A stretch of 64,000 bases of DNA from Bacillota bacterium (GTDB lineage: Bacteria > Bacillota > SHA-98 > UBA4971): NCBI GenBank assembly GCA_014360195.1, contig JACIXY010000003.1, positions 83,692-147,691 of the forward strand, given 5' to 3'. The notes under the pieces were generated by a model. That model did no database searches. It had not been told where the DNA came from and saw only the letters and a list, made by a program, of their open reading frames with translations. Position 1 is the stretch's first letter, and every line of letters begins with the position of its first letter. The position numbers and the translations under genes were made by a program. Positions 1 to 63,615 of the stretch are shown here, in pieces.

Positions 1-1234
1 TGTTCTTGCGAGCCTTCTTGATGATCCCGTCCATCCACGCCGCGACGTCCTGCCCCTCCACGCCCTCCGGATGAAGGAAGAGGAGTATCCCGCTGGCGTG
101 GCTGGTGAGTATGTGCTTTAGCCTGTTCCTGCGGCAAAAGTCGGCCAGGATGGTGGTGGCCTGAGCCTTGGCGAGCTGGCAGGCCCGTTCGTTTTCTGCT
201 ATGTTCTCGATCCTGCTGCTGGGCCGGACATCGAAAATGGCCGCAACATACTCAAGGCTAAGATCCCAGCCGAAGGTCCTGCCCCTCGCTATAAACCTCT
301 CCTGGTCCGGCCGGTCCGTGGAGAACAGCTGGTCCAGGAACTCGGTGCGATACTTCTGCTCCACCTGGACGAGGCCGTGGTGCCGAATAATGTCGAACGA
401 GATGAGCGGACACAGGCGCTCGAGGTTGAGAAGGTCGAGCACGGTGAAGCTGCTCTCGAACTTCACCGCCTTGATGGACCCGAACTGCTCATTTGCGCTC
501 GTCACAGGCACCCGTATGACCTCAGCCCTGTAGCTGTCTCCCTCGACCTGCTCGCGCTGGAACGACAGCACCGTACCCTCTATGCTGTCGGTGAATGTCT
601 CGGTCGCAAGAAGCTCACTGGGTCGGTCCAGAAGGGCGCGGGCGAGGCCGGCCGTCCCCTTGCCCCAGCACTCTCCAGCGAGCGCCCGGCGGAGATTGAG
701 GGAGTCCTCCACAAGCACGACGGCCTTGAGCAGGTCCGCGAGGGCGCTCGCGATCTCCTCAAGGCCGCCGCCTTCCACGATGAGGTCCATGAACTTCCGG
801 TGCACAGCCATGCCCAGTTGCACAAACCTGGCTTGGCGGTTCACGATCTGCGCCAGCACCGCCGAAATAAGTTCCGAGAAGCTCACCTCGAGCGGTAACT
901 CGAGAAGCGGCAACCCGTGCTCGTCCGCGGCGTCCACCATGTGAGCGGGCACGGTGTCTATGTAGCGCTTGGGCTTGAACGCCACTGCCGCGAGGCCCTT
1001 GGCTGCAAGCCTGGGAAGGAGCGTCTTCTGGGCTTCCACATCGTCCTTGATGGGGTAACCTGTAGTAAGGAGAAGGTCCCCTTCCCTGATCCATTCCAGG
1101 ATGTCCGGCACCTCCATAACATTGACGTTGGTTACGACGCGGCCGAGCCCCTGGCGCCCTCCTATCACCTTCGCGCTGGCAAACGCCGGGAGCGTGAGGA
1201 CCTCCTCCACGGTTATGCCAACCTCGTGCAACAT
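1..1234 (-). CDS. PucR-family transcriptional regulator, N-terminal part only; the C-terminal HTH lies beyond the window start
   Basis: Manual minus-strand translation from ATG at 1234 with RBS GCGAGGTG 8 nt upstream gives MLHEVGITVEEVLTLPAFASAKVIGG...LLLTTGYPIKDDVEAQKTLLPRLAAKGLAAVAFKPKRYI..., typical of PucR N-terminal domains. The ORF track misses it because the stop is outside the window. The plus-strand ORFs at 168-1375 are its R/H-rich antisense frames. Confidence 0.5.
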   Translation of the reverse strand, partial: MLHEVGITVEEVLTLPAFASAKVIGGRQGLGRVVTNVNVMEVPDILEWIREGDLLLTTGYPIKDDVEAQKTLLPRLAAKGLAAVAFKPKRYIDTVPAHMVDAADEHGLPLLELPLEVSFSELISAVLAQIVNRQARFVQLGMAVHRKFMDLIVEGGGLEEIASALADLLKAVVLVEDSLNLRRALAGECWGKGTAGLARALLDRPSELLATETFTDSIEGTVLSFQREQVEGDSYRAEVIRVPVTSANEQFGSIKAVKFESSFTVLDLLNLERLCPLISFDIIRHHGLVQVEQKYRTEFLDQLFSTDRPDQERFIARGRTFGWDLSLEYVAAIFDVRPSSRIENIAENERACQLAKAQATTILADFCRRNRLKHILTSHASGILLFLHPEGVEGQDVAAWMDGIIKKARKN

Positions 1235-1368
1235 GGCGCAAACACCTCGCAGAGCCTGTTTGTGTTCGGGTGGAGAGAATCCTGCGACGTCGTTCCTTCT
1301 GTGCTTGAGTATTTTAAGAACTTCGACACAGAGCGCTGCCTTTCCTCCGACGCGTCCCCAGTATCAGG

Positions 1369-1493
1369 TAAGTAAGGGTGCGTTAGTCTTTGTCCATCTT
1401 CCAGCCGTTGCCAGGTTGCCGGTGTTGCACTTTCTCTTTGGGTCACCGGCAACCCCTCCCAAGAGCCGGGAGCATTTCCGCACCCTCACTTAC
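1369..1493. repeat. MITE-like repeat copy A, short form
   Basis: TAAGTAAGGGTGCGTTAG...GGTTGCCGGTG-N18-CACCGGCAACCCCTCCCAAGAGCCGGGAGCATTTCCGCACCCTCACTTAC. It has terminal inverted repeats and an internal palindrome. Confidence 0.6.
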
Positions 1494-3963: not shown

Positions 3964-3989
3964 ACAGGATACCCGCCACCTTGGTGAGC

Positions 3990-4102
3990 GTTCATAAGTT
4001 CGTCCACTTCCACTGCGTCTAGTGGGTTGCCGGTGTCGGACTCTCTCTTTGAGTCACCGGCAACCCGTCCCAAAGTTGGGAGGATCTTTGCACCATCACA
4101 TA
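3990..4102. repeat. MITE-like repeat copy B (degenerate left end)
   Basis: GGGTTGCCGGTG...CACCGGCAACCCGTCCCAAAGTTGGGAGGATCTTTGCACCATCACATAG. Confidence 0.5.
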
Positions 4103-4247
4103 GAGGTACGGCGCCTGGAGGAGAATGTCTTGACGAAACTCGCCCGCAGGTAAGCAGCGGAGTTCCAACGGCCCAATGTACGAACGCCGACACCCCGCCA
4201 AGAAATCCCGCGCGCCGAAAACACTTCTCACGCGCGCCACACCATAG

Positions 4248-4703
<456 letters not shown>

Positions 4704-4732
4704 CTTTCTCCGGTCGACCTTGGGGGGTTCTC

Positions 4733-5248
4733 ATGCGCCTCGACTACACGTACATCTTCCAGATACTCAACTTCATCGTCTTGTTTCTCCTCCTTCGCCG
4801 TTACCTCTTCGGTCCCGTGAAAGCGTACCTGGAACGGCGGGAACAGTATATCCGCGAGCGGATTTCAGCAGCGGAGAACGACAGAGAGCACGCCGCAAGG
4901 CTCAAGGAAGAGCTCGAATCCGAGATTTCCCAGGCCCGGGCGAAGGCGAGCGAAATCACGGAGGAAGCCAGGCGCGCGTCCGACCAGATCCGGGCCGATG
5001 CCCGCAAGCTGGCCGCCGAGGAAGCCTCGCGCATCGTGGCCCGTGCCCGTGAAGAGCTTGCCCGCGAGAAGGAGCGGGCTTTCCAGGAGATCCGCAAGCA
5101 GGTGGTGGACCTCTCGGTCGCCGTCGCATCGCAAGCGATCCGGGACGCACTCGACCCAGAGACGCTGCGTCAGGTTGCGTCCATGGCCGCGCGCGACATC
5201 GTCGAGGCGAAACTCGGAGGCAAGGTTTACGGAGGCAAGGTCTCATGA
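4733..5248 (+). CDS. atpF: F0 ATP synthase subunit b
   Basis: N-terminal TM helix followed by a long charged coiled coil, in operon position. ATG at 4733. Confidence 0.8.
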   Translation: MRLDYTYIFQILNFIVLFLLLRRYLFGPVKAYLERREQYIRERISAAENDREHAARLKEELESEISQARAKASEITEEARRASDQIRADARKLAAEEASRIVARAREELAREKERAFQEIRKQVVDLSVAVASQAIRDALDPETLRQVASMAARDIVEAKLGGKVYGGKVS

Positions 5249-7505: not shown

Positions 7506-8462
7506 ATGGAGGAGCTTCGCGACCTTCGCCGCAGGATACGCAGCGTCCGGAGCACACAGCAGATCACCCGCGCCATGTCTCTCGTGGCTTCCACGCGGCT
7601 GCGCCGGATCGAGAGGTTTGTCGAACCCGCTCGCACTTATGCCGAGACCCTCCGGCGCATCGTCCTTGACATCGCCGCGAGAACCCCGCCGTGGGCTCAT
7701 CCGCTCCTCAAGCCGAAGGAGGCGGTGACCCGGGCATATCTCGTCATAACTTCCGATAGGGGTCTTGCGGGCGGCTACAACGCGGAGATCCTGCGGCGAG
7801 CAACTGACCTCCTCGGAGCAGCGAACCTCATACCAGGCCACGTGGTGGTGGTAGCCGGCAGGAAGGGCCGGGACTTCTTCCGGAGGCGGGGCCCACGACC
7901 GGTCAGGGAGTACGTCCACCTCCCCGACACTCCTGACGAAGCGCTCGCCCGGCACATCTCCGAGGGCCTGCTCGCGGATTATTTCGAAGGCCGGATAGAC
8001 TCAGTGCACATGGTATTCGCGAGGTTCGTGTCCCGGGGTTCGTACCAGCCCGACGTCGTGCAATTGCTGCCTGTAGAGGGGGCACAACACGCCGGCTACC
8101 AGGACCAGACCCGGATCCCCGTCACCCACAACGAAGGCGACCGGAATGAGGTGATTGGCCGGAACAACGGCACCCGTGACAGGGAAAGGCCGAACGGCCC
8201 GCACCTGCCTTTTACGTATGAGCCTTCGCCCGAGTCCGTCCTCGACAGGCTCTTCCCCCACTATCTAGTGTCCGCGGTGTACGCAGCGCTCGTGGAGGCC
8301 AAGGCCAGCGAGCTTGCGGCGAGGACCATCGCTATGGACTCGGCCACCGACAACGCGGGGGAGCTTATAGAGAGGCTCACGCTCACCTATAACCGGGCGA
8401 GGCAGGCCGAGATCACGCAGGAGATCTCGGAGATCGCCACCGGCGCGGAGAGCCTCCGCTGA
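7506..8462 (+). CDS. atpG: F1 ATP synthase gamma subunit (with about 40-aa insertion)
   Basis: RIRSVRSTQQITRAMSLVASTRL N-terminus and the canonical C-terminus. Confidence 0.9.
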   Translation: MEELRDLRRRIRSVRSTQQITRAMSLVASTRLRRIERFVEPARTYAETLRRIVLDIAARTPPWAHPLLKPKEAVTRAYLVITSDRGLAGGYNAEILRRATDLLGAANLIPGHVVVVAGRKGRDFFRRRGPRPVREYVHLPDTPDEALARHISEGLLADYFEGRIDSVHMVFARFVSRGSYQPDVVQLLPVEGAQHAGYQDQTRIPVTHNEGDRNEVIGRNNGTRDRERPNGPHLPFTYEPSPESVLDRLFPHYLVSAVYAALVEAKASELAARTIAMDSATDNAGELIERLTLTYNRARQAEITQEISEIATGAESLR

Positions 8463-8506: not shown

Positions 8507-10264
<1,758 letters not shown>

Positions 10265-10564: not shown

Positions 10565-12320
10565 CGCGGTTCCGCCCCTCCCTCTTTCCACGGTAACATG
10601 CCATGTCCGCAAGGTATATGAGGTCCTTCTGGGTTCTGGCGTCCGTGGGATACGTGGCAACCCCCACCGTGACGGTGACGCGCCCGCTTGGTATCTGGTC
10701 CTCGTTAGGGAACGGGTATGCCTCTATTCTCGCCCTGATCTTCTCAGCCACCTTGAGCGCGTGCGCCTTCTGCGCCTCCAGGAGTATGACCACGAACTCT
10801 TCCCCGCCATACCTTGCCACAATGTCGGTCGAACGAACGGACCTCGTGAGGAGCCTCGCCACAGCTTTCAGCGCGGCATCGCCTGCCGGATGCCCCAGCA
10901 CGTCGTTATACTGCTTGAAATCGTCGATGTCGATCATCAGCAGAGATAGATAGCGTCCGTAGCGCTCGCACCTCGCCAGCTCCTCCGCAAGTCTCTCCTG
11001 GAAATGCCTGTGGTTGAAAAGCCCTGTGACCGAGTCTGTGATGGCCAGCCTCTCGGCTATCCGATGTAGCCGCGTCACTTCGGCAAGCTGCCTGTCGAGC
11101 TTGGCGTTGACCCGCCTGAGCTCCGCCTCGCTCTTTTCGAGCAACTCGTTCTTCACCTTAAGCTCGCGGTACAGCCTCGCGTTCTCTATGGCGATAGCCG
11201 CCTGCGTGCCGATGGTGCACATGATCCGCACGTGGTCTTCCTCGAAACGCTGGGTGTAGCTCTGTACCGACATCACTCCGATGACCCTGTTCTGCACCGA
11301 AAGCGGCACTGCGATCACCGATAGCGGCTTATCTCCCAGTGTGATGGCCTCAGCAGGCACGTGCTTCATGTCCCTGGCCGAATCCCTTATGAAGAGGGGC
11401 TTGCCCGACTTTATCACCCACTCGGTGAGACCCTTCCCGGTGGGATAGGGCCGTGTGAAACTGGCCACGCGCACGCCATGGTCCACGACCATCTCGAACC
11501 TGATCTCGGAAGCCTGTTCGTCAAAGAGGGCCACGAAGAACGATTCGTTGCCGATGATCGCCGCCACCTGCTCGTACATGACCTCGAGCAGCGCCGGAAA
11601 GTCAAGCACGGAGGTGGTCGCTACCGCCACTTTGTATATGCTCATCATCTCAGCAGCAAACCGGCGGGCCTCCTCGGTCTGGCGGCGCAGCTCCTCCTCA
11701 AGCTGCCTCCTCTGGGTCATGTCGCGCACTACGCCCTGAATCCCCACGGGGGCGCCTTCCTTCCGGATGACGCTCGTGTTGATCTGGCAGTATACGGACT
11801 TGCCACCGCATCCCGCTAGCTCCACGTCGAGCATCTGGCAATCACGGGACATGCTGCCCGGCGAGAGGGCCGCGGCGACCTCATCGTGGCTCGTGTCGGC
11901 CACCACCTCGAAGATCCTCCGGCCTACTAGCTCGTGAGCACCGCACCCGAGCATCGCCGCAAAGGGCTCGTTTACATACGTGATCGTGCCGTCGAGATCG
12001 GCGACGAACATCCCGTCGCTCGCGTTCTCAATGAGCTGCCGGTACTTGGCTTCCGATTCGGAGAGGTCCCTGATGGTGGCCCTCACCTTCCTGCTGAGGG
12101 CCCTGTTGGCCGCAACCGTGGCGACGATGACGAAAAGGAGCGCCCCGAGGACCGTCAGAGCCATGAAGTGAGCCATGGACATCTGCTGCTGACTCGCGAA
12201 AAGCGGGCCTTCGATCGGCAGAGCAAAAGCCATGCCGAAAGCGGAAGCGGAGCAGCCTGCGACCGCCCCCGGGCAGGGAAATGGACGCACCCATCCTGTG
12301 GCTGATCCCGGCATCATCCC
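10551..12320 (-). CDS. Membrane-anchored PAS-GAF-GGDEF diguanylate cyclase
   Basis: GGEEF active site, RYGGEEF, and PAS and GAF segments. ATG at 12320 with RBS GGAGGAGGTG 4 nt upstream. Confidence 0.8.
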   Translation of the reverse strand, partial: GMMPGSATGWVRPFPCPGAVAGCSASAFGMAFALPIEGPLFASQQQMSMAHFMALTVLGALLFVIVATVAANRALSRKVRATIRDLSESEAKYRQLIENASDGMFVADLDGTITYVNEPFAAMLGCGAHELVGRRIFEVVADTSHDEVAAALSPGSMSRDCQMLDVELAGCGGKSVYCQINTSVIRKEGAPVGIQGVVRDMTQRRQLEEELRRQTEEARRFAAEMMSIYKVAVATTSVLDFPALLEVMYEQVAAIIGNESFFVALFDEQASEIRFEMVVDHGVRVASFTRPYPTGKGLTEWVIKSGKPLFIRDSARDMKHVPAEAITLGDKPLSVIAVPLSVQNRVIGVMSVQSYTQRFEEDHVRIMCTIGTQAAIAIENARLYRELKVKNELLEKSEAELRRVNAKLDRQLAEVTRLHRIAERLAITDSVTGLFNHRHFQERLAEELARCERYGRYLSLLMIDIDDFKQYNDVLGHPAGDAALKAVARLLTRSVRSTDIVARYGGEEFVVILLEAQKAHALKVAEKIRARIEAYPFPNEDQIPSGRVTVTVGVATYPTDARTQKDLIYLADMACYRGKREGRNRVIQA

Positions 12321-26879: not shown

Positions 26880-27290
26880 ATGCGCCCGAGGGCGGCCACA
26901 TTCGGTGCGAGAAGGCGAAGGCTAAGTAGATCGCCACAAGTAATCGCCGGTTTCAGAGAGCACACGTGCCGTGCAGGGTTGCCGGTGTTGCACTCGGGGA
27001 CGGCGCCCCAAGCGGGGCGCGCTTCGCCAAAATCCGGCCCGTCGGGCCAGTGGCCGGATTTTGACACCCCTCGTGCAATCACCGGCAACCCAAGACCTCG
27101 GAAAACGGAGAAAACTAATGACCTCATACTTAGAAGCCGCAAGCGGCGTCGAAGCCGGGGGGCTCTGGCGCCGCCGCGAGAGTCGCACAAGGCGCGGAAG
27201 GCCGCGCTCAAGCCCTCAGGGGCCTTTTCGCGGCCTTACATGCCGACCGAACGGTTGACCCGCCGCCGCGGTGCGACCAGCGGTACGAGC
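26880..27290. repeat. Composite MITE island I: long-form copy D at about 26924-27095 plus related flanking segments
   Basis: GGCTAAGTAGATCGCCACAAGT...GGGTTGCCGGTGTTGCACTCGGGGACGGCGCCCCAAGCGGGGCGCGCTTCGCCAAAATCCGGCC...GGCCGGATTTTGACACCCCTCGTGCAATCACCGGCAACCC...CATACTTAGAAGCC. Nearly the same composite recurs at 36990-37290 in the same orientation. Confidence 0.6.
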
Positions 27291-36790: not shown

Positions 36791-36908
36791 CCACGGTCCC
36801 TCCTCTGACCTCAAGTTGCTACGTGTAATATATGAACCTGCACGAGGGCCGGTGCCTGTTCCGCCTGCCAGGGGACCGGAGCACCTGCGGCGGGAAGGTG
36901 GCGTTCGG

Positions 36909-37432
36909 CTTAAGTGAGAATGCAGAGATCCTCTCGACTTTGAGAGGGGCTGCCGGTGGTTGCACGAGAGGTGCCAAAATCCGGCCACTGGCTAAGTAGA
37001 TCGTCACAAGTTTGCGCTGCTTTCCAGTGCGCAAGTCCTATCCAGGGTTGCCGGTGTTGCACTCCGGGGACGGCGCGCTTGCGGCGCGCCTCGTTCGAAT
37101 TTGGCGTACGGGCTGGCCAAATTCCAGGCGCCCCGCCCTAGCAAGCACCGGCAACCCCAACACCGCCAGAACAAGTGTCGCAAACTTATGGCGCCATACT
37201 TAGACGGGCCGGATTTCGGCGAAGTGTGCCCCGCTTGGGGCCCCGTCCCCGAGTGCAACACCGACAGCCCCCTGCCCACTGGAAAACTGGGAGGAATTAA
37301 CAACCCCCCGCTCAGGTTTGAATTCAGTAGCCTGCACTAAGTGAGGGTGACTAAGTGAGCGTGCGGGAATGCTCACGACTCCAGGAGGGGTTGCCGGTGA
37401 CCGAAGGAGAGAGCGCAACACCGGCAACCCAC
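36909..37432. repeat. Composite MITE island II: inverted copy E0 at about 36909-36989, long copy E1 at 36990-37159, inverted fragment E2 at 37195-37275, and copy E3 at 37338-37432 with a duplicated terminal repeat
   Basis: CTTAAGTGAGAATGCAGAGATCCTCTCGACTTTGAGAGGGGCTGCCGGTG (reverse orientation), then GGCTAAGTAGATCGTCACAAGT...GGGTTGCCGGTGTTGCACTCCGGGGACGGCGCG..., and CTAAGTGAGGGTGACTAAGTGAGCGTGCG...GGTTGCCGGTG...CACCGGCAACCC. Confidence 0.6.
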
Positions 37433-37479
37433 GGGAAGGCAACGATAGCTTGAGGCCAATGGCATGTGTGAACCCGTAC

Positions 37480-38292
37480 TTACAGGTCGAGGAGGTGCTC
37501 GAGGCCGAAGACCGCGTGATCCAGGTCCATGACTCTCCGGATGGCTAGCATGACGCCAGGCATGAACGACTCCCTCGATATCGAGTCATGGCGTATCGTG
37601 AGCACCTGGCCCGGTCCCCCGAAAAGGACCTCCTGGTGAGCGACCAGGCCCGGCAGCCTCACGCTGTGTATCCGCACGCCCCCAACGCTCTCGCCCCGGG
37701 CGAGGGGCTCCTCGCCCCCAGCTGCGGCCTCCGCCCGCGCCCGGTCCACCCTGGCCATGCCCTGCGCGGTCTTGATGGCCGTACCGGAGGGCGCGTCTAT
37801 CTTCCTGTCATGGTGTAGCTCGATTATCTCGGCGGCGTGGAAATACCTCGAGGCCATCTCGGCAAACTTCATCATGAGTACCGCCCCTATGGCGAAGTTG
37901 GGGGCGACCACCGCGCCGATCCCGTTCCTGTGGCACAGCCGGTCGATCTCATCGATGTCCTGCGCGCCGAGGCCGGTCGTGCCCACCACGCACCGAACGC
38001 CCATCCCCAGTGCCGTCCTGACGTTCTCCATGACGGCGGCCGGGTGCGTGAAGTCCACCATCACGTCCGGGCGTAGCCGGGTGAGGGACGAGACGAGATC
38101 GCGCGTCACCTCGAGAAAACCGTCCGTGCGCTCGGCATCAATGGGCACCCTCCCCTCCCTGACGTCCACCCCGCCGACAAGCTCCATGTCAGGCTCCCTT
38201 GACACTGCGGCCAGGACCTGCCTCCCCATCCGTCCCGCGGCACCAGCCACGACCACTCTTATCCGCGACGCCTTCTCCGTCTTCATCTCCAT
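37480..38292 (-). CDS. dapB: 4-hydroxy-tetrahydrodipicolinate reductase
   Basis: IRVVVAGAAGRMGRQV...ELHHDRKIDAPSGTA. ATG 38292 with RBS GGGGGAGGGG. Confidence 0.85.
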   Translation of the reverse strand: MEMKTEKASRIRVVVAGAAGRMGRQVLAAVSREPDMELVGGVDVREGRVPIDAERTDGFLEVTRDLVSSLTRLRPDVMVDFTHPAAVMENVRTALGMGVRCVVGTTGLGAQDIDEIDRLCHRNGIGAVVAPNFAIGAVLMMKFAEMASRYFHAAEIIELHHDRKIDAPSGTAIKTAQGMARVDRARAEAAAGGEEPLARGESVGGVRIHSVRLPGLVAHQEVLFGGPGQVLTIRHDSISRESFMPGVMLAIRRVMDLDHAVFGLEHLLDL

Positions 38293-38439
38293 GTCTTTCC
38301 CCTCCCCCATTCATGTCCGTTCGCCTCGGCTGGCCACGGCGAAAGGAAAATGAAGAGCCGCCCGGTGCCCGGCCTTGCACGGCTGGACCCGCGACGGCGT
38401 CTTCCCAGCGGATGCCGAAGGCCACCCGGGCCTTTACCT

Positions 38440-38565
38440 CTAAGTGAGGGTGCGTTAGTTCTCGCCGCTCTTCCAGTAGTCGTCGGGTTGCCGGTGTTGA
38501 GCTCTCTCCTTCGGTCACCGGCAACCCCTCCCAAAAGTCGGGAGCATTTCTGCACCCTCACTTAG
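38440..38565. repeat. MITE-like repeat copy F, complete short form (reference copy)
   Basis: CTAAGTGAGGGTGCGTTAG-N31-GGTTGCCGGTG-N19-CACCGGCAACCCCTCCCAAAAGTCGGGAGCATTTCTGCACCCTCACTTAG. Its right terminal repeat contains the TAA stop of the adjacent gene. Confidence 0.7.
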
Positions 38566-39053
38566 TGGATCTCGATATCAGATGCCCCGAACCTCGCAAG
38601 CACGTTCTTCGCGTCGTCCACGGTGTTGTCGTCGGCCTTCACAACCGCGAGGATCTTGCCTTCCTTCACCTTGTTCTCGTAGTACCTTCCCCGCTCCTCG
38701 GGAATGCCGAGGTCAACAAGGCCTCCCACGATCCCGCCGGTCACAGCCCCGGTGAGACCTGCAGCTATGGGGCCCGCAGCGACGATGGGGCCGATCCCGG
38801 GGATCGCAAGCGCGCCAAGCCCGGCGAGAAGGCCCGTCGCGCCCCCTATGGCGCCGCCGGTGAGGGTCCCACCGGTAATGTCATTTCCCCCTCCCCGCAT
38901 CGTAAGCCCGCCCTCGCCGCGGTCGCCTCCCTTCATGCGCTCCTCCTTCGCCACGATGGATACCTTGTCATCACCGAAGCCCTTTCGCTTCAGCTCCTCG
39001 ACCGCCCTTTCCGCCTGATCGCGCGAATCAAACGTGCCTATTACGCTTGCCAT
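38562..39053 (-). CDS. YflT / general-stress-protein-17M-like (DUF1269) protein with a glycine-zipper C-terminus
   Basis: MASVIGTFDSRDQAERAVEELKRKGF...GGAIGGATGLLAGLGALAIPGIGPIVAAG. Its own RBS GGAGGAGG lies 8 nt upstream of the ATG at 39053. Confidence 0.6.
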   Translation of the reverse strand: MASVIGTFDSRDQAERAVEELKRKGFGDDKVSIVAKEERMKGGDRGEGGLTMRGGGNDITGGTLTGGAIGGATGLLAGLGALAIPGIGPIVAAGPIAAGLTGAVTGGIVGGLVDLGIPEERGRYYENKVKEGKILAVVKADDNTVDDAKNVLARFGASDIEIH

Positions 39054-39368
39054 TTGCAAAGCCTCCTCCGAAAGACTGGATTTCGGCTTTAGTTTGACAT
39101 AATGGCAAGCCTTGTATTCACCGCAGTCCATGGCGGCCGCGACCTGCTGCTTGCACTGCTCACGGGAGTCTGATGCATCGTGGCCCTCGAGCTTCTCCTT
39201 GATGCGTAGGTACTGGGCGACAAGCCTGTCCAGGTTTTCGCTGATGCGGTATGTCTCCGCCCCGTCAAGCCTTCCGTCGTCCCGGGCTATGGCCGTGTGC
39301 AGCTCCGCGCGCAACTCCTCGATGGCACCCCGGAGCGACTGCAGCCTCTCGTGTATCCTGCCGACCAT
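39054..39368 (-). CDS. Spo0E-like aspartyl-phosphate phosphatase domain ORF with no in-frame stop; it reads through into the downstream yflT-like gene (possible fusion or pseudogene)
   Basis: MVGRIHERLQSLRGAIEELRAELHTAIARDDGRL...ISENLDRLVAQY matches the Spo0E family. RBS GGAGGGAG. An AT-rich intergenic-looking stretch is translated in frame, and the 5-prime 104 nt overlap the M16 peptidase 3-prime end. Confidence 0.4.
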
Positions 39369-40587
39369 GGTACTCCCTCCGAACGAATGACGATTTCGCC
39401 TTCCGCGGGCCGACCGCGGCCGCAACGGGCACCGCCCCGCCGAGCAGCTCCGCTGCCACCTCGCGCACGTCATCTCCGGTCACGCCATCGATCCTTCTGA
39501 AAACCTCATCTGGTGTCTCCAGAGGTTCGTGGAAGAGCTCGAGTCGTCCGAGCCTGCTCATGCGGCTATTAGTTGTCTCGAGATTCAACACGAGACTGCT
39601 TTTCAGCTGTTCCTTGCCCCTGCTTAGTTCCTCGGCGCTGATTCCACAAGACGCTACCTCGTTAAGCTCCTCACGAATGAGGTCCTCGACGACCTGGACA
39701 CGGTCCGGGCTTGTAGCCGCATAGAGGATGAAAGCTCCTGCATCGTCGAACGACGCCACGTACGAGTACGTCGAGTACACGAGGCCCCGATCTTCCCTGA
39801 GCTTCTGAAACAGCCTGGAGCTCATGCCACCGCCGATGGCGATGTCAAGCAGGTAAAGCGCAAATCTCTTCGGGTGCTTTCTGTTGTACGCTTCGACCCC
39901 GAGGCAGAGGTGCACCTGCTCGGTGTTCTTCGGTCGAAACACGCGCGCGCCCGGGGTCCACGACGGCCGCACCTCAGCAACCTGGGCGGAGGATGGCAGG
40001 CTAAGGTGCCTCTCCACCGCCTCCACGATGCTTTCGTGGGTCACATGCCCGGCCGCCGCGACAACTACATTGTCGCACGTGTAGTGATTGCCCATGTACC
40101 TGACTATGACATCCCTCGTGAGATTGCCGAGTGTCCCCTGCGTTCCGAGCACGGGCAGACCCACCGACCGGCTTCCCCAGGCCGCGCGAGCGATCTCGTC
40201 GTGGACCACGTCTTCCGGCGAGTCCTCGTACATCCCGATCTCCTCTGCCACCACGCCCCTCTCCTTCTCCACATCCTCCGGAGCCAGGAGCGGGTGGCAC
40301 ACGAGGTCGCACAGGATGTCCACCGCAAGGTCAACCTGCTTATCCAGCACCTTCGCGTAGAAACAGGTGTGGTCCTTGCCTGTGAAGGCATTCAACTGAC
40401 CGCCGACGCCGTCCATCTCTTCGGCGATCTGCCTCGCCGTCCGCCGTGTCGTGCCCTTGAAGACCAGGTGCTCGATGAAGTGGGAGACGCCGTTCTCCGC
40501 TGGGGCTTCCCATCTCGAGCCCGCGTTCACCCAGATGCCGACGGAGCAGGATCTCACGTGAGGGATCTCTTCGGTGACCACTCTCAC
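39265..40587 (-). CDS. mlpA: M16 family zinc peptidase (MlpA/YmxG-like)
   Basis: HFIEHLVFKGT HxxEH motif. Position equivalent to B. subtilis mlpA next to the spoVF/dap block. Confidence 0.8.
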   Translation of the reverse strand: MRVVTEEIPHVRSCSVGIWVNAGSRWEAPAENGVSHFIEHLVFKGTTRRTARQIAEEMDGVGGQLNAFTGKDHTCFYAKVLDKQVDLAVDILCDLVCHPLLAPEDVEKERGVVAEEIGMYEDSPEDVVHDEIARAAWGSRSVGLPVLGTQGTLGNLTRDVIVRYMGNHYTCDNVVVAAAGHVTHESIVEAVERHLSLPSSAQVAEVRPSWTPGARVFRPKNTEQVHLCLGVEAYNRKHPKRFALYLLDIAIGGGMSSRLFQKLREDRGLVYSTYSYVASFDDAGAFILYAATSPDRVQVVEDLIREELNEVASCGISAEELSRGKEQLKSSLVLNLETTNSRMSRLGRLELFHEPLETPDEVFRRIDGVTGDDVREVAAELLGGAVPVAAAVGPRKAKSSFVRREYHGRQDTREAAVAPGCHRGVARGAAHGHSPGRRKA

Positions 40588-40744
40588 GCCACACGGGAGA
40601 ACCGTTCGCTTGTAAGAGGCTGTGCCACCCGACTTTGACAGATCTCTCCACCTCTCGTCATGAAACGACAGACACTGATAGATTCGCCCACGTCAATATG
40701 ATTCCTCTTTCATCCTGAGAGAATCTCACCGCGATCTTTCGCGC

Positions 40745-40937
40745 GCGTGAGGGCTCGTTAGTCCCTCCCGGTGTGCCAACATCTGGTGGGCTGCCGGTGT
40801 TGCACTCGGGGACGGCGCCCCAAGTGGGGCGCGCTTCGCCAAAATCCGGCCCGTTAGGCAAGCGGCCATCTTGACACCCCTGGTGCAACCACCGGCAACC
40901 CATCCCAAAAGTCGGGAGCGTTTCTGCGCCCCTGCAC
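40745..40937. repeat. MITE-like repeat copy G, long form
   Basis: GCGTGAGGGCTCGTTAG...GCCAACATCTGGTGGGCTGCCGGTGTTGCACTCGGGGACGGCGCCCCAAGTGGGGCGCGCTTCGCCAAAATCCGGCC...CACCGGCAACCCATCCCAAAAGTCGGGAGCGTTTCTGCGCCCCTGCAC. Confidence 0.6.
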
Positions 40938-41093
40938 AGCCGGACGGCGGTCACTGCATGGCAGCTCATGCAGAAACAGGCTCCGCTAGAGGAAGTTACA
41001 TAAAGGATCGTGGGCTTCGCAGTAGAATTGGGCATTACACACCGTGTGCGTCCGCGTCGGCCGGACGCTTCCGCCAAGGAGGAGAAGCCCGAC

Positions 41094-52245: not shown

Positions 52246-52399
52246 GTGGACACCCTCCGCAAGGTCCCTGCTACCTCCTCCTCTCGTGCAATAGTATACT
52301 GAGCCCCGGAAAATATCATTCTATTCGAGGTGTCCACTGTCGCCCACCACGTATGTTTAGCTCCTTCGGTTTGTCATGTAGGCCACCAGATGCCTGCCA

Positions 52400-52509
52400 A
52401 CATTTCAGCCGCCTTGCCAACATCTGGTGGGTTGACGGTGTTGCACTCTCTCCTTGAGTCACCGGCAACCCCTCCCAAAAGTCGGAAGCATTTCTGCACT
52501 CTCACTTAG
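52400..52509. repeat. MITE-like repeat copy H; shares the GCCAACATCTGGTGGG left module with copy G
   Basis: GCCAACATCTGGTGGGTTGACGGTGTTGCACTCTCTCCTTGAGTCACCGGCAACCCCTCCCAAAAGTCGGAAGCATTTCTGCACTCTCACTTAG. Confidence 0.6.
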
Positions 52510-61404: not shown

Positions 61405-62796
61405 TTACACATTGGCATGTCGCACGAGGCGGGCGATGAAGAAGCCATCCATCGCATGGATGTGAGGAAACGTTTCAACGTAGGGCAGGCCCTGCTCAGG
61501 GAAAGCCTGCGAAAACTCGCGGGGCAGATAGGGCTTTACGGAGTCGAGGGAGAAATCGGGGTGTTCTTCGAGGAACCTCTCAACGATCTGGGCGTTTTCC
61601 TCAGGTTCAATGCTGCACGTGCTGTAGACGATGACACCTCCGGATTTCACTTGCGCTCCGGCAACAGCGAGGAGGTTGGCCTGGGTCCTGGTAAGGTCTG
61701 CGATATCCTGGGGCTTTCTGCGCCACCTGAGGTCAGGCCGGCGCCTCAGCACACCCGTGCCGGTGCATGGCGGGTCCACGAGGGCTCTATCGAAGGGGCG
61801 GGATATGATGTCACCGGCTCCGGAAAGGAGACGCGTAGCGTCTCGAACGACGGTCGTGATGGAGTGAATGCCAAGCCTTTTCGCGTTTTGCTCAAGCAGC
61901 TTTATCCTGTGCTCATGCACATCGACGGCCACGATCTCGCCCCGGTCACCCATTCGTTCGGCCATGTGCGTAGTCTTGCCCCCCGGCGCGGCGGCAAGAT
62001 CGAGCAGCCGCTCACCCGGGACAGGACCGAGCACGTAAGATACGAGCATGGAGCTTGGGTCCTGCACGAAAAACTCCCCGTCGTGGTAAGAGCGGTGGTC
62101 AAACAGGCCGCCGCCGTCGCGGACCTCGATGGCCTCGGGAACGTGCGGCGATGGGCGCGCCTCGACGCCTGCGGCGGAAAGCTCCTCGAGGAGCCTGTCG
62201 CGGGAGGTCTTGAGCGTGTTCACCCGGACTGTTACAGGTGGATTCTCGTTATTTGCCGCGCACAGGCGCGCTGTTTCATCAAAACCGAACCGCGCGAGCC
62301 ACCGCGAGACCATCCACTCCGGGTGTGAGTACTTCAGCGCGATGTGGTCCACGGGCCGCGTAGCCGCATCGGGGAAAACAGCCTTACCAGGCTCCCGAAC
62401 CAGCGCCCGCAGAACGGCGTTCACAAAGGCAGCGGCGCCCGCGTGCCCGAATGCGCGAGCGATTTCCACCGACTCGCTCACGGCGACGGGCACCGGGACC
62501 TGCGCAAGGCAGAGGACCTGGTATGCCCCGAGCCGCAGAGCATTGCGCACGACCGGGTCCATCCTTTCGATGGGGCGCGCGGCGAAGACCCCGATCACAT
62601 GGTCGAGCGCCTTGCGCATCTTCGTCACGCCATATACGAGCTCGGTCGCAAGAGCACGATCGCGCGCCGAGAGGCGCGCGAGCCTCAGAGCGCGATCTCT
62701 TGCGATTGCAGCGTACGCTCCTTTTTCGTCGATCTCAATCAGTGCCCGCAGGGCGGCCCCGCGAGCGTTCTCTGGCACGTTCACGGGGAAAACCAT
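61405..62796 (-). CDS. rsmB: 16S rRNA (cytosine967-C5)-methyltransferase RsmB/Sun
   Basis: NusB-like N-terminus and the Sun methyltransferase core (TCSIEPEENAQIV). Confidence 0.8.
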   Translation of the reverse strand: MVFPVNVPENARGAALRALIEIDEKGAYAAIARDRALRLARLSARDRALATELVYGVTKMRKALDHVIGVFAARPIERMDPVVRNALRLGAYQVLCLAQVPVPVAVSESVEIARAFGHAGAAAFVNAVLRALVREPGKAVFPDAATRPVDHIALKYSHPEWMVSRWLARFGFDETARLCAANNENPPVTVRVNTLKTSRDRLLEELSAAGVEARPSPHVPEAIEVRDGGGLFDHRSYHDGEFFVQDPSSMLVSYVLGPVPGERLLDLAAAPGGKTTHMAERMGDRGEIVAVDVHEHRIKLLEQNAKRLGIHSITTVVRDATRLLSGAGDIISRPFDRALVDPPCTGTGVLRRRPDLRWRRKPQDIADLTRTQANLLAVAGAQVKSGGVIVYSTCSIEPEENAQIVERFLEEHPDFSLDSVKPYLPREFSQAFPEQGLPYVETFPHIHAMDGFFIARLVRHANV

Positions 62797-62797
62797 C

Positions 62798-62923
62798 CTA
62801 AGTGAGGGTGCGTTAATCCTGTTGCGTCTTCCAGTAGTTGCTGGGTTGCCGGTGACTCAAAGAAAGAGTGCAACACCGGCAACCCCTCCCAAAAGTCGGG
62901 AGCATTTCCGCATCCTCACTTAG
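62798..62923. repeat. MITE-like repeat copy I, complete short form, wedged between rsmB start and the upstream gene stop
   Basis: CTAAGTGAGGGTGCGTTAATC...GGTTGCCGGTG...CACCGGCAACCCCTCCCAAAAGTCGGGAGCATTTCCGCATCCTCACTTAG. The right terminal repeat supplies the TAA stop at 62920-62922. Confidence 0.7.
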
Positions 62924-63615
62924 TCCCGGCGGCTGCCCCGGAGGATGAGGAGCCGAAGAAGTTGCGTCACCGCGACCGCGGTGGCCGCAAGGTAGGTCAT
63001 TCCGGCAGCGCTCAGCACCTGGCTGGCGTGGCGGAGCTCATCGGTCGTCATGTACCCGCCGTGCCTCAGGAGCGTCAGCGCCCTCCTGCTCGCGTCGTAC
63101 TCAACCGGAAGCGTCACGATGGAGAACGCAACGGCGCCGACGAAGAGCCAGATCCCCAGGGTCATCAGCCACTCGAGTCCGGTCCCCGCGAAGATGAAGC
63201 CTATGAGGAACAGCGGGAACGCGAGGTTCGAGCCAAACGTCGCCACCGGCACGAGGCTCGAGCGGATGGCGAGCGGCACATAGCCGGTCGCGTGTTGTAT
63301 GGCGTGACCGGCTTCGTGCGCTGCGACGCCGAGCGCAGCAAGTGAACTGCCGCTGTACACCTCGGGCGACAGGCGAAGGACCTTTGCCCGTGGGTCATAA
63401 TGGTCCTGCAACCTCCCTGGGATCTGTTCGATTCGCACAGAGCTGAGCCCGCTGCCATCGAGGATGTGCCGGGCCACCTCGGCTCCACTCACACCGCTAC
63501 GTGCCCTTACCCTGGAGTAGGTGTTGAACACGCTCTGCACCGTGCTCTGCGCCCACAAGGCGAACAGCATCGCAGGGAATATCAGAATGTAAGTGGGGTC
63601 CCAGAAAAACATCAT
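62920..63615 (-). CDS. Membrane zinc metallopeptidase (YpfJ / PF04228-like, HEAGH motif)
   Basis: AAHEAGHAIQH. ATG 63615 with RBS GAGGAGGG. Confidence 0.7.
   Translation of the reverse strand: MMFFWDPTYILIFPAMLFALWAQSTVQSVFNTYSRVRARSGVSGAEVARHILDGSGLSSVRIEQIPGRLQDHYDPRAKVLRLSPEVYSGSSLAALGVAAHEAGHAIQHATGYVPLAIRSSLVPVATFGSNLAFPLFLIGFIFAGTGLEWLMTLGIWLFVGAVAFSIVTLPVEYDASRRALTLLRHGGYMTTDELRHASQVLSAAGMTYLAATAVAVTQLLRLLILRGSRRD

Follow-up and report, generated by a model that had tools for sequence, protein, structure and literature searches.

A family of small non-coding MITEs in CTAG sites of an uncultured, GC-rich Bacillota lineage

Copies of the repeat in the window

The stretch of DNA analysed here, termed the window, comprises 64 kb of a Bacillota genome with a G+C content of 62.5%. 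Its approximately 40 large ORFs are all housekeeping genes and include the atp operon, FtsK, dapB/dpaAB/asd, RNase J, RsmB, ABC transporters and glycosyltransferases. Dispersed among them are 11-12 copies or fragments of a palindromic repeat family, which together amount to 1723 bp or 2.7% of the window. The repeat is a previously unnamed family of tiny non-coding MITEs, an ordinary kind of element that is unusually dense here. The original prediction had proposed a family with 12 or more copies; the family was confirmed, and the count was settled at 11-12 copies or fragments.

The positions given for these copies were approximately right, as indicated by motif counts far above chance and by a profile search. 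The 14-nt terminus CTAAGTGAGGGTGC matched the window 10 times at ≤2 mismatches (0.31 expected), a 30-nt module five times (0 expected) and the inner palindrome half GGTTGCCGGTG 24 times at ≤1 mismatch (1.8 expected). All 15 exact matches of GGTTGCCGGTG in the window lie inside copies, and the inner palindrome is never separate from a full element there. With a profile derived from five full copies, these were recovered at E-values of 1e-35 to 1e-42, together with degenerate copies, and a repeat search of the window grouped the same loci.

The element proper, from AGTGAGGGTGC to GCACCCTCACT, has a short form of 122 bp and a long form of ~195 bp. In 43 paired copies the terminal inverted repeat (TIR) was AGTGAGGGTGC / GCACCCTCACT. 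As written, the perfect inverted repeat is 14 nt long and includes C-TA and TA-G; these derive from the target, and the true TIR is therefore 11 bp instead of the 19 bp originally assumed. Inward of the TIR the arms pair only imperfectly. Among the paired termini of the window and the related MAG loci, 10 copies span 125-127 bp and ~28 copies 192-200 bp with the same TIRs, and sizes of 89, 96, 159, 231 and 310-312 bp are rarer. A long form of about 190 bp had been anticipated; the class exists, its size being 192-200 bp overall and 197-200 bp in related genomes. Three types of left arm were distinguished, A, B and C, the last denoting copies in which both arms differ. Common to all types are the TA ends and the inner palindrome GGTTGCCGGTG/CACCGGCAACC, whose halves enclose either a 19-nt loop or one of two ~95-nt cassettes. 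The copies are small (<300 bp) and non-coding, with stop codons in the termini and no Pfam-bearing ORF within them. As predicted, all copies of the window are intergenic, three of them overlapping stop codons. Most are located between co-directional genes, and both orientations relative to the neighbours occur.

The reference short-form copy (38440-38565, plus strand) is 126 bp long including both TA and reads CTAAGTGAGGGTGCGTTAG...GGTTGCCGGTG-(19 nt)-CACCGGCAACC-CCTCCCAAAAGTCGGGAGCATTTCTGCACCCTCACTTAG. Its element proper occupies 38442-38563, the TA target-site duplication (TSD) is at 38441-38442 and 38563-38564, and the TTA at 38562-38564 is, as TAA on the minus strand, the stop codon of a YflT/Spo0E-like gene. 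Another short-form copy (1368-1493, plus strand) ends in GTA...TAC, which implies the target GTAC. The intergenic region surrounding it (899-1726) is unusually long with ~830 nt, and the nearby ORFs 917-1375 (plus strand) and 759-1241 (minus strand) yielded no Pfam match. The short-form copy at 3980-4103 (plus strand) separates a ChsH2-like gene from the atp operon; its inner palindrome is intact, and its termini have decayed (4 and 2 mismatches). The atp operon itself contains a degenerate short-form copy with a B-type arm (8578-8709, minus strand) between atpG (7506-8462) and atpD. A type-C long copy of 212 bp (26922-27133, plus strand) is flanked by ABC_tran_2 and ClpP-like genes; its outer arms differ (CTAAGTAGATCGCC...CATACTTAG), and its TA ends, inner palindrome and central module agree with the long form. 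Related loci match this copy at 94-96% identity over 214 nt.

The densest cluster had been described as four nested copies at 36909-37432, which was right in substance. A long-form copy on the minus strand, delimited by aligning it with three intact paralogues (L068, L003 and L041), begins with 36910-36991 and is interrupted by a type-C copy of 212 bp on the plus strand (36992-37203). This nested copy carries the second kind of central module and is inserted at the CTAG within the loop of the long copy around it, which continues at 37204-37316 and has a decayed distal terminus. Next to it are a solo terminus CTAAGTGAGGGTGA (37337-37350, plus strand), the remnant of an older copy, and a short-form copy (37351-37483, minus strand), whose distal end at 37480-37482 (TTA) is the TAA stop codon of DapB. 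DapB orthologues without the element read CTC TGA GT or CTC TAG GT at this position.

Three copies complete the set. The long-form copy with a B-type arm at 40745-40937 (plus strand), which is absent in locus L084, is situated between the divergently oriented M16 peptidase and GH18 genes; both its termini have decayed and the inner palindrome is kept. The short-form copy with a B-type arm at 52385-52509 (plus strand) has an intact right terminus and a left terminus that was lost or rearranged. The short-form copy at 62798-62923 (plus strand), in which the central loop is inverted, is inserted in the TAG stop codon of a Zn-peptidase gene. The stop codon of this gene (62920-62922) is now TAA on the minus strand, and the ATG of rsmB (62794-62796) is 1 nt away from the copy.

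Target site and its duplication

The flanks of 43 copies are unrelated to each other and share no direct repeat beyond CTA...TAG. Two readings fit this: that insertion duplicates nothing, or that it duplicates a TA which the palindromic ends conceal. Filled and empty sites were compared in three independent cases, two at orthologous positions in ~97%-identical strains and a third between a nested insertion and a paralogous copy, and these comparisons revealed that the TA inside CTAG is duplicated on insertion.

The first empty site is found in L165 (Logan contig SRR25909835_32961) next to a YflT/Spo0E-like homologue with 97% identity. It reads ...GATATCGAGATCCAC TAG AGGTAAAGGCCCGGGTGGCC (shown also as ...ATCCAC TAG AGGTAAAGGCCCGGG), and the filled site on the reverse strand of the window reads ...GATATCGAGATCCAC TA-{AGTGAGGGTGC...GCACCCTCACT}-TA G AGGTAAAGGCCCGGGTGGCC; in short, CAC TAG AGGTAAAGG versus CAC TA-{AGTGAGG...CCTCACT}-TA G AGGTAAAGG. 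The second is the Zn-peptidase/rsmB junction. Five Logan contigs from five runs (L166-L170) read GGGAT TAG GG ATG GTTTCCC at this junction, L172 and L173 (UBA6811) are also empty with GCGAC TAG CGCC, and the filled site of the window reads GGGAC TA-{AGTGAGGATGC...CCCTCACT}-TA G G ATG GTTTTCCCC. In L171 (Yes71-24) a degenerate type-C element (4690-4940) occupies the same Zn-peptidase TAG stop codon, which looks like the independent reuse of one CTAG site. The nested insertion of the window, CACTGG C-TA-{AGTAGATCG...CATACT}-TA-G ACGGGCC, corresponds to CACTGG CTAG ACGGGCC in the paralogue L068. The empty sites in L165, L068, L172 and L173 all read CTAG. In the 43 copies, C precedes and G follows the TA in ~41, and the TA is intact at ~37-39 of the 43 ends on each side. 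The target is CTAG, its TA is duplicated, and the outer C and G come from the target.

Copies also differ in presence between strains. The first 3.1 kb of the window are 96-97% identical to JAAYXB010000075 (L006), a contig of the MAG 'Bacillota bacterium AS02xzSISU_21', and the copy 1368-1493 is absent from this ~96%-identical contig. As a clean empty site for that copy L006 was rejected, as ~15 nt of the flank have diverged. Both checks proposed in the original prediction, for target-site duplications and for insertion polymorphism between strains, were thereby answered positively, the former by the TA within CTAG in three filled-versus-empty comparisons, the latter by the absence of copies in L006, L165 and L166-L170. 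As a side observation, the YflT-like stop codon of L083 precedes a mere 10 nt of a terminus, CTAAGTGAGG (10732-10741), beyond which the normal flank resumes; the 10 nt may be a deletion remnant or an excision footprint.

The family is dispersed in many copies with TIRs and TA duplication in CTAG, varies in presence between strains, inserts into its own copies and has used the same site repeatedly. The proposed non-autonomous, MITE-like nature is supported by the TIRs, the TA duplication and the insertion polymorphism. IS630-family and Tc1/mariner elements insert at TA, duplicating it, by DDE cut-and-paste transposition, and IS630 prefers the TA in 5'-CTAG-3' (PMC2170065). Similar evidence led to the assignment of RUP, a 107-bp MITE of S. 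pneumoniae, to IS630-Spn1 (PMC2229807). Given the TA duplication in CTAG and the published preference of IS630, we read the family as MITEs of the IS630/Tc1-mariner type, an assignment based on target and duplication. We consider it likely, at a probability of roughly 0.8, that a DDE transposase acting by cut-and-paste moves the elements in trans, or did so until recently; it would most probably be of the IS630/Tc1-mariner type, its identity and the cut-and-paste chemistry being deduced from sequence. A 2-bp staggered cut at the TA of CTAG and subsequent repair would duplicate the TA, so that every copy would read C-TA-element-TA-G.

The search for a cognate transposase, which the original prediction had recommended, returned none in the ORFs of the window or in ~650 kb of related loci. 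Pfam detected no transposase domain in the ~40 large ORFs of the window, no autonomous element with these TIRs was found in the window or the ~650 kb of related loci, and the 1360 ORFs of these loci include no multi-copy ORF that would be a candidate for a partner IS. Stray termini, either unpaired or without the inner core, were considered as the ends of a partner IS and rejected: they are truncated or degenerate copies, chance matches, or copies that carry a nested second mini-element.

Some IS5-group elements also give duplications of 2-3 bp, and a 2-bp TSD is not strictly unique to IS630. The MITEs might be moved by a DDE transposase outside the IS630/Tc1-mariner group, for instance an IS5-group or PIF/Harbinger-like enzyme acting at T(N)A-type sites. 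The CTAAG...CTTAG termini superficially resemble the YTAR/TNA-type targets of IS5-group elements, and the failure to find a partner transposase in the window ORFs or the ~650 kb of related loci leaves room for such an enzyme. We consider it unlikely, as the duplication was exactly 2 bp (TA) at three independent sites; a 3-bp TNA or a 4-bp CTAG duplication would give TAG...TAG or CTAG...CTAG, neither of which was seen. In addition, TA within CTAG is the preference published for IS630 (PMC2170065).

CTAG rarity and stop codons

CTAG is scarce in the window, with 31 occurrences against 219 expected (O/E 0.14), and about 11 further former CTAG sites are now filled by copies. The counts of CTAA and TTAG are low as well. 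About one quarter of all present or former CTAG sites of the window carry the MITE.

A TAG stop codon preceded by C is one natural source of the rare CTAG. Since CTAG is very rare in this GC-rich genome and C-TAG stops supply it, many insertions fall exactly on stop codons. Three copies of the window are located exactly on stop codons of Pfam-supported genes, coding for the YflT-like protein, DapB and the Zn-peptidase, and convert TAG to TAA. Stop-codon insertions are tolerable because the change from TAG to TAA leaves the protein unchanged. Over all loci, 20 of 116 element ends terminate an ORF of ≥150 codons with their TAA, as compared to 7 and 7 in the control frames. Among the free CTAG sites, only ~2 of 31 are stop codons of real genes.

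The Zn-peptidase stop and the rsmB start were 1-2 nt apart before the insertion. Within 62794-62925, the ATG of rsmB is now 1 nt from one base of the hairpin and the stop codon of the upstream gene at the other. Any former translational coupling or ribosome-binding context between the two genes has been replaced by element sequence. One may speculate that the hairpin rejoins the upstream stop and the downstream start at its base and in this way preserves translational coupling, for example that of Zn-peptidase and rsmB. If true, coupling across the hairpin base would explain why insertions at operon junctions are tolerated.

Modular structure and predicted folding

Arms and centres are combined in various ways. 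With the right arm as reference, the central segment has the opposite orientation in 5 of 35 long and 2 of 15 short copies (7/50, ~14%), among them the copy 62798-62923, and a 192-bp copy in L068 (7102-7293) has the right arm at both ends (R'-core-R). This mosaic would be explained most simply if the inverted core repeats recombined with each other or served for template switching.

A modular, strongly palindromic and intergenic element with a conserved inner hairpin and a centre in both orientations also recalls REP/BIME/REPIN-like or IS200/IS605-type units, which would be moved by a Y1 HUH transposase (RAYT/TnpA) via single-stranded DNA hairpins. REP-type and IS200/IS605 families have no true TIRs and no target duplication. 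A REP unit is a hairpin of 20-40 nt with an associated RAYT gene, and IS200/IS605 elements insert 3' of a fixed tetra- or pentanucleotide. The present elements possess 11-bp TIRs and duplicate TA, the inner palindrome is never alone outside a full element in the window, and no Y1 transposase is encoded in the window. We therefore regard this origin as extremely unlikely, because TA duplication and true TIRs occur together. The same features contradict the REP/BIME-like unit considered in the original prediction; the IS200/IS605 TnpA/TnpB partner suggested there gives way to a DDE transposase of the IS630/Tc1-mariner type, to which the TIRs and the TA duplication point.

The predicted fold of the short form has a free energy of -61.7 kcal/mol (z = -8.5) on one strand and of -62.5 kcal/mol (z = -7.9) on the other; the value for a 212-bp copy is -104.6 kcal/mol (z = -7.4). 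It is plausible that copies between co-directional genes are transcribed into very stable hairpins. Within the inner palindrome the sequence is also more uniform than elsewhere. In nine copies of the window the core has 2 mismatches in 99 positions, compared to 35 in 225 in the adjacent arm and 13 in 126 in the right TIR. In 22 long copies the core is 97.5-99% identical and the remainder 89-95%, a difference possibly subject to ascertainment bias because the copies were partly found through the core.

Stable predicted folds (z = -8.5 and -7.4), the preference for positions between co-directional genes including one inside the atp operon, and an inner palindrome better conserved than arms and termini could indicate a structured RNA or regulatory hairpin, such as an mRNA stabiliser or processing site, that the host keeps for its function. 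A covariation test for a selected RNA structure gave a term of -0.15, with a single double change in 3 of 65 pairs; there is too little variation, and covariation is essentially absent. Rfam returned no match at the gathering score for the whole window and none at E≤1 in 36850-41000, and in a consensus scan the copies between 36800 and 41100 contained nothing resembling a promoter or a terminator. With respect to neighbouring genes the copies point either way, and close strains without individual copies show no other change. Selection among elements for mobility can account for the core conservation. Retention as a host RNA thus appears very improbable to us. From the modelled folds the hairpin potential is real, and nothing in these analyses points to selection on RNA structure. 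The conservation of the core fits selection among elements for a feature of their propagation and does not prove a host function. That the inner palindrome GGTTGCCGGTG/CACCGGCAACC is a functional module, either a hairpin or recombination site used in mobilization or an RNA stem exapted by the host, is a tentative idea which we consider rather doubtful. It would draw on the presence of this palindrome in three otherwise different arm types, on its conservation, and on the swapped and inverted cassettes between its halves.

Distribution among related genomes

When each species was represented by one genome, a scan with CACCGGCAACCCNTCCCAA located at least 80 loci in at least six MAGs. Most of the loci listed come from the six MAGs AS02xzSISU_21, Yes71-24, MAG107, MAG111, UBA6811 and AS06rmzACSIP_86, and among the names of related contigs are 'biogas fermenter metagenome' and 'bioreactor metagenome'. 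Biogas reactors are the source of the several uncultured Bacillota MAGs in which the family occurs. Across several species, 22 long copies have a mean column identity of ~93%, whereas the intergenic DNA of those species barely aligns. A metagenome scan with DapB retrieved a single close relative (L085), the remaining loci being 45-57% identical.

In many loci of AS02xzSISU_21 (L008, L037, L040, L055, L057, L063, L072 and others) the pattern is found ~90-130 nt from the start of the locus. This suggests that many contigs of this MAG terminate within a copy and that short-read assemblies of the lineage break at the repeat. Copies of the MITE were also present in L007, L065 and L073 (JBLNCC01), which belong to MAG135, a genome labelled Betaproteobacteria. 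A Zn-peptidase under the same label is 88% identical to that of the window (P0126). The MAG135 contigs with the MITE probably belong to the Bacillota lineage and were mis-binned.

In the right arm of some copies, we observed a second, unrelated mini-element of ~113 nt with the TIRs GAGACTGTTGA...TCAACAGTCTC and a flanking direct GTGCAG repeat. It was noted in L004 (6674-6985), L009 (4526-4835) and L018 (~1-208), and together with the MITE it forms a composite of 310-312 bp. As the same composite of 310-312 bp is found in two genomes, it seems to have been mobilized as a unit.

A BLAST search of a copy against plasmid records (PLSDB, distant mode) gave no match. A match to a viral contig of 46% GC (L175) was dismissed as due to chance, with only ~30 nt in common.

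Relation to known elements

Literature searches by lineage, by MITE/IS630 and by TIR and core retrieved no description of this family. The most similar element in a member of the Bacillota is RUP (IS630-Spn1), a MITE of ~100 bp with short TIRs and TA at both termini that inserts at TA, is intergenic, forms a stable hairpin and is present in ~100 copies of high mutual identity (PMC2229807). The two families are unrelated in sequence and belong to different lineages, the host of the present one being GC-rich. In contrast to RUP, the elements described here have a strong preference for CTAG, two size classes, three arm types and an inner palindrome with an invertible cassette. For RUP the matching IS is known, whereas none was found for the present family in the window and the ~650 kb of related loci. 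IS630 of Shigella sonnei and ISY100 share the duplication of TA, and the CTAG preference of IS630 is identical to the present target (PMC2170065). Both are autonomous elements of 1.1-1.2 kb with a transposase, unlike the non-coding elements of 122-196 bp found here.

Correia/NEMIS elements of Neisseria likewise have TA termini, a target duplication and two size classes determined by an internal segment (~107 and 155 bp); they occur in the hundreds, are transcribed along with the genes next to them and give rise to long hairpin transcripts (PMC2229807). The likeness is organisational only, since Correia/NEMIS elements have a Neisseria-specific TIR of 24-26 bp in place of AGTGAGGGTGC and reside in another taxon. 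Functions as IHF site, promoter and RNase III substrate are documented for Correia elements. The plant Stowaway elements are also non-autonomous, palindromic and TA-duplicating, and are moved in trans by mariner-like transposases (cited in PMC2170065). They are eukaryotic and unrelated in sequence. REP/BIME/REPIN units are similarly intergenic, palindromic and mosaic, and differ in that they form no TIR-bounded unit, lack a TSD and are linked to the Y1 transposase RAYT, whereas the present family has TIRs and a TA duplication. In its organisation the family is closest to RUP, Correia/NEMIS and Stowaway; it is set apart by its sequence, its host, the strict CTAG preference, the mosaicism of the arms and the inner palindrome.

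Implications

The family is a marker of an uncultured Bacillota lineage that is GC-rich and comes from biogas reactors. In practical terms, the repeat fragments MAG assemblies and can flag mis-binned contigs. It also affects gene prediction, as the element makes or overlaps stop codons and lengthens spurious ORFs; a 303-aa ORF of the window represents a real gene of 268 aa. The current understanding of transposition is unchanged by this family. It provides a clean natural example in Bacillota of CTAG-specific, TA-duplicating transposition, in which insertions, the target being rare, are concentrated on TAG stop codons and in other copies. With its many near-identical copies, it is a tractable case for studying the role of a conserved inner hairpin and an invertible cassette in a MITE.
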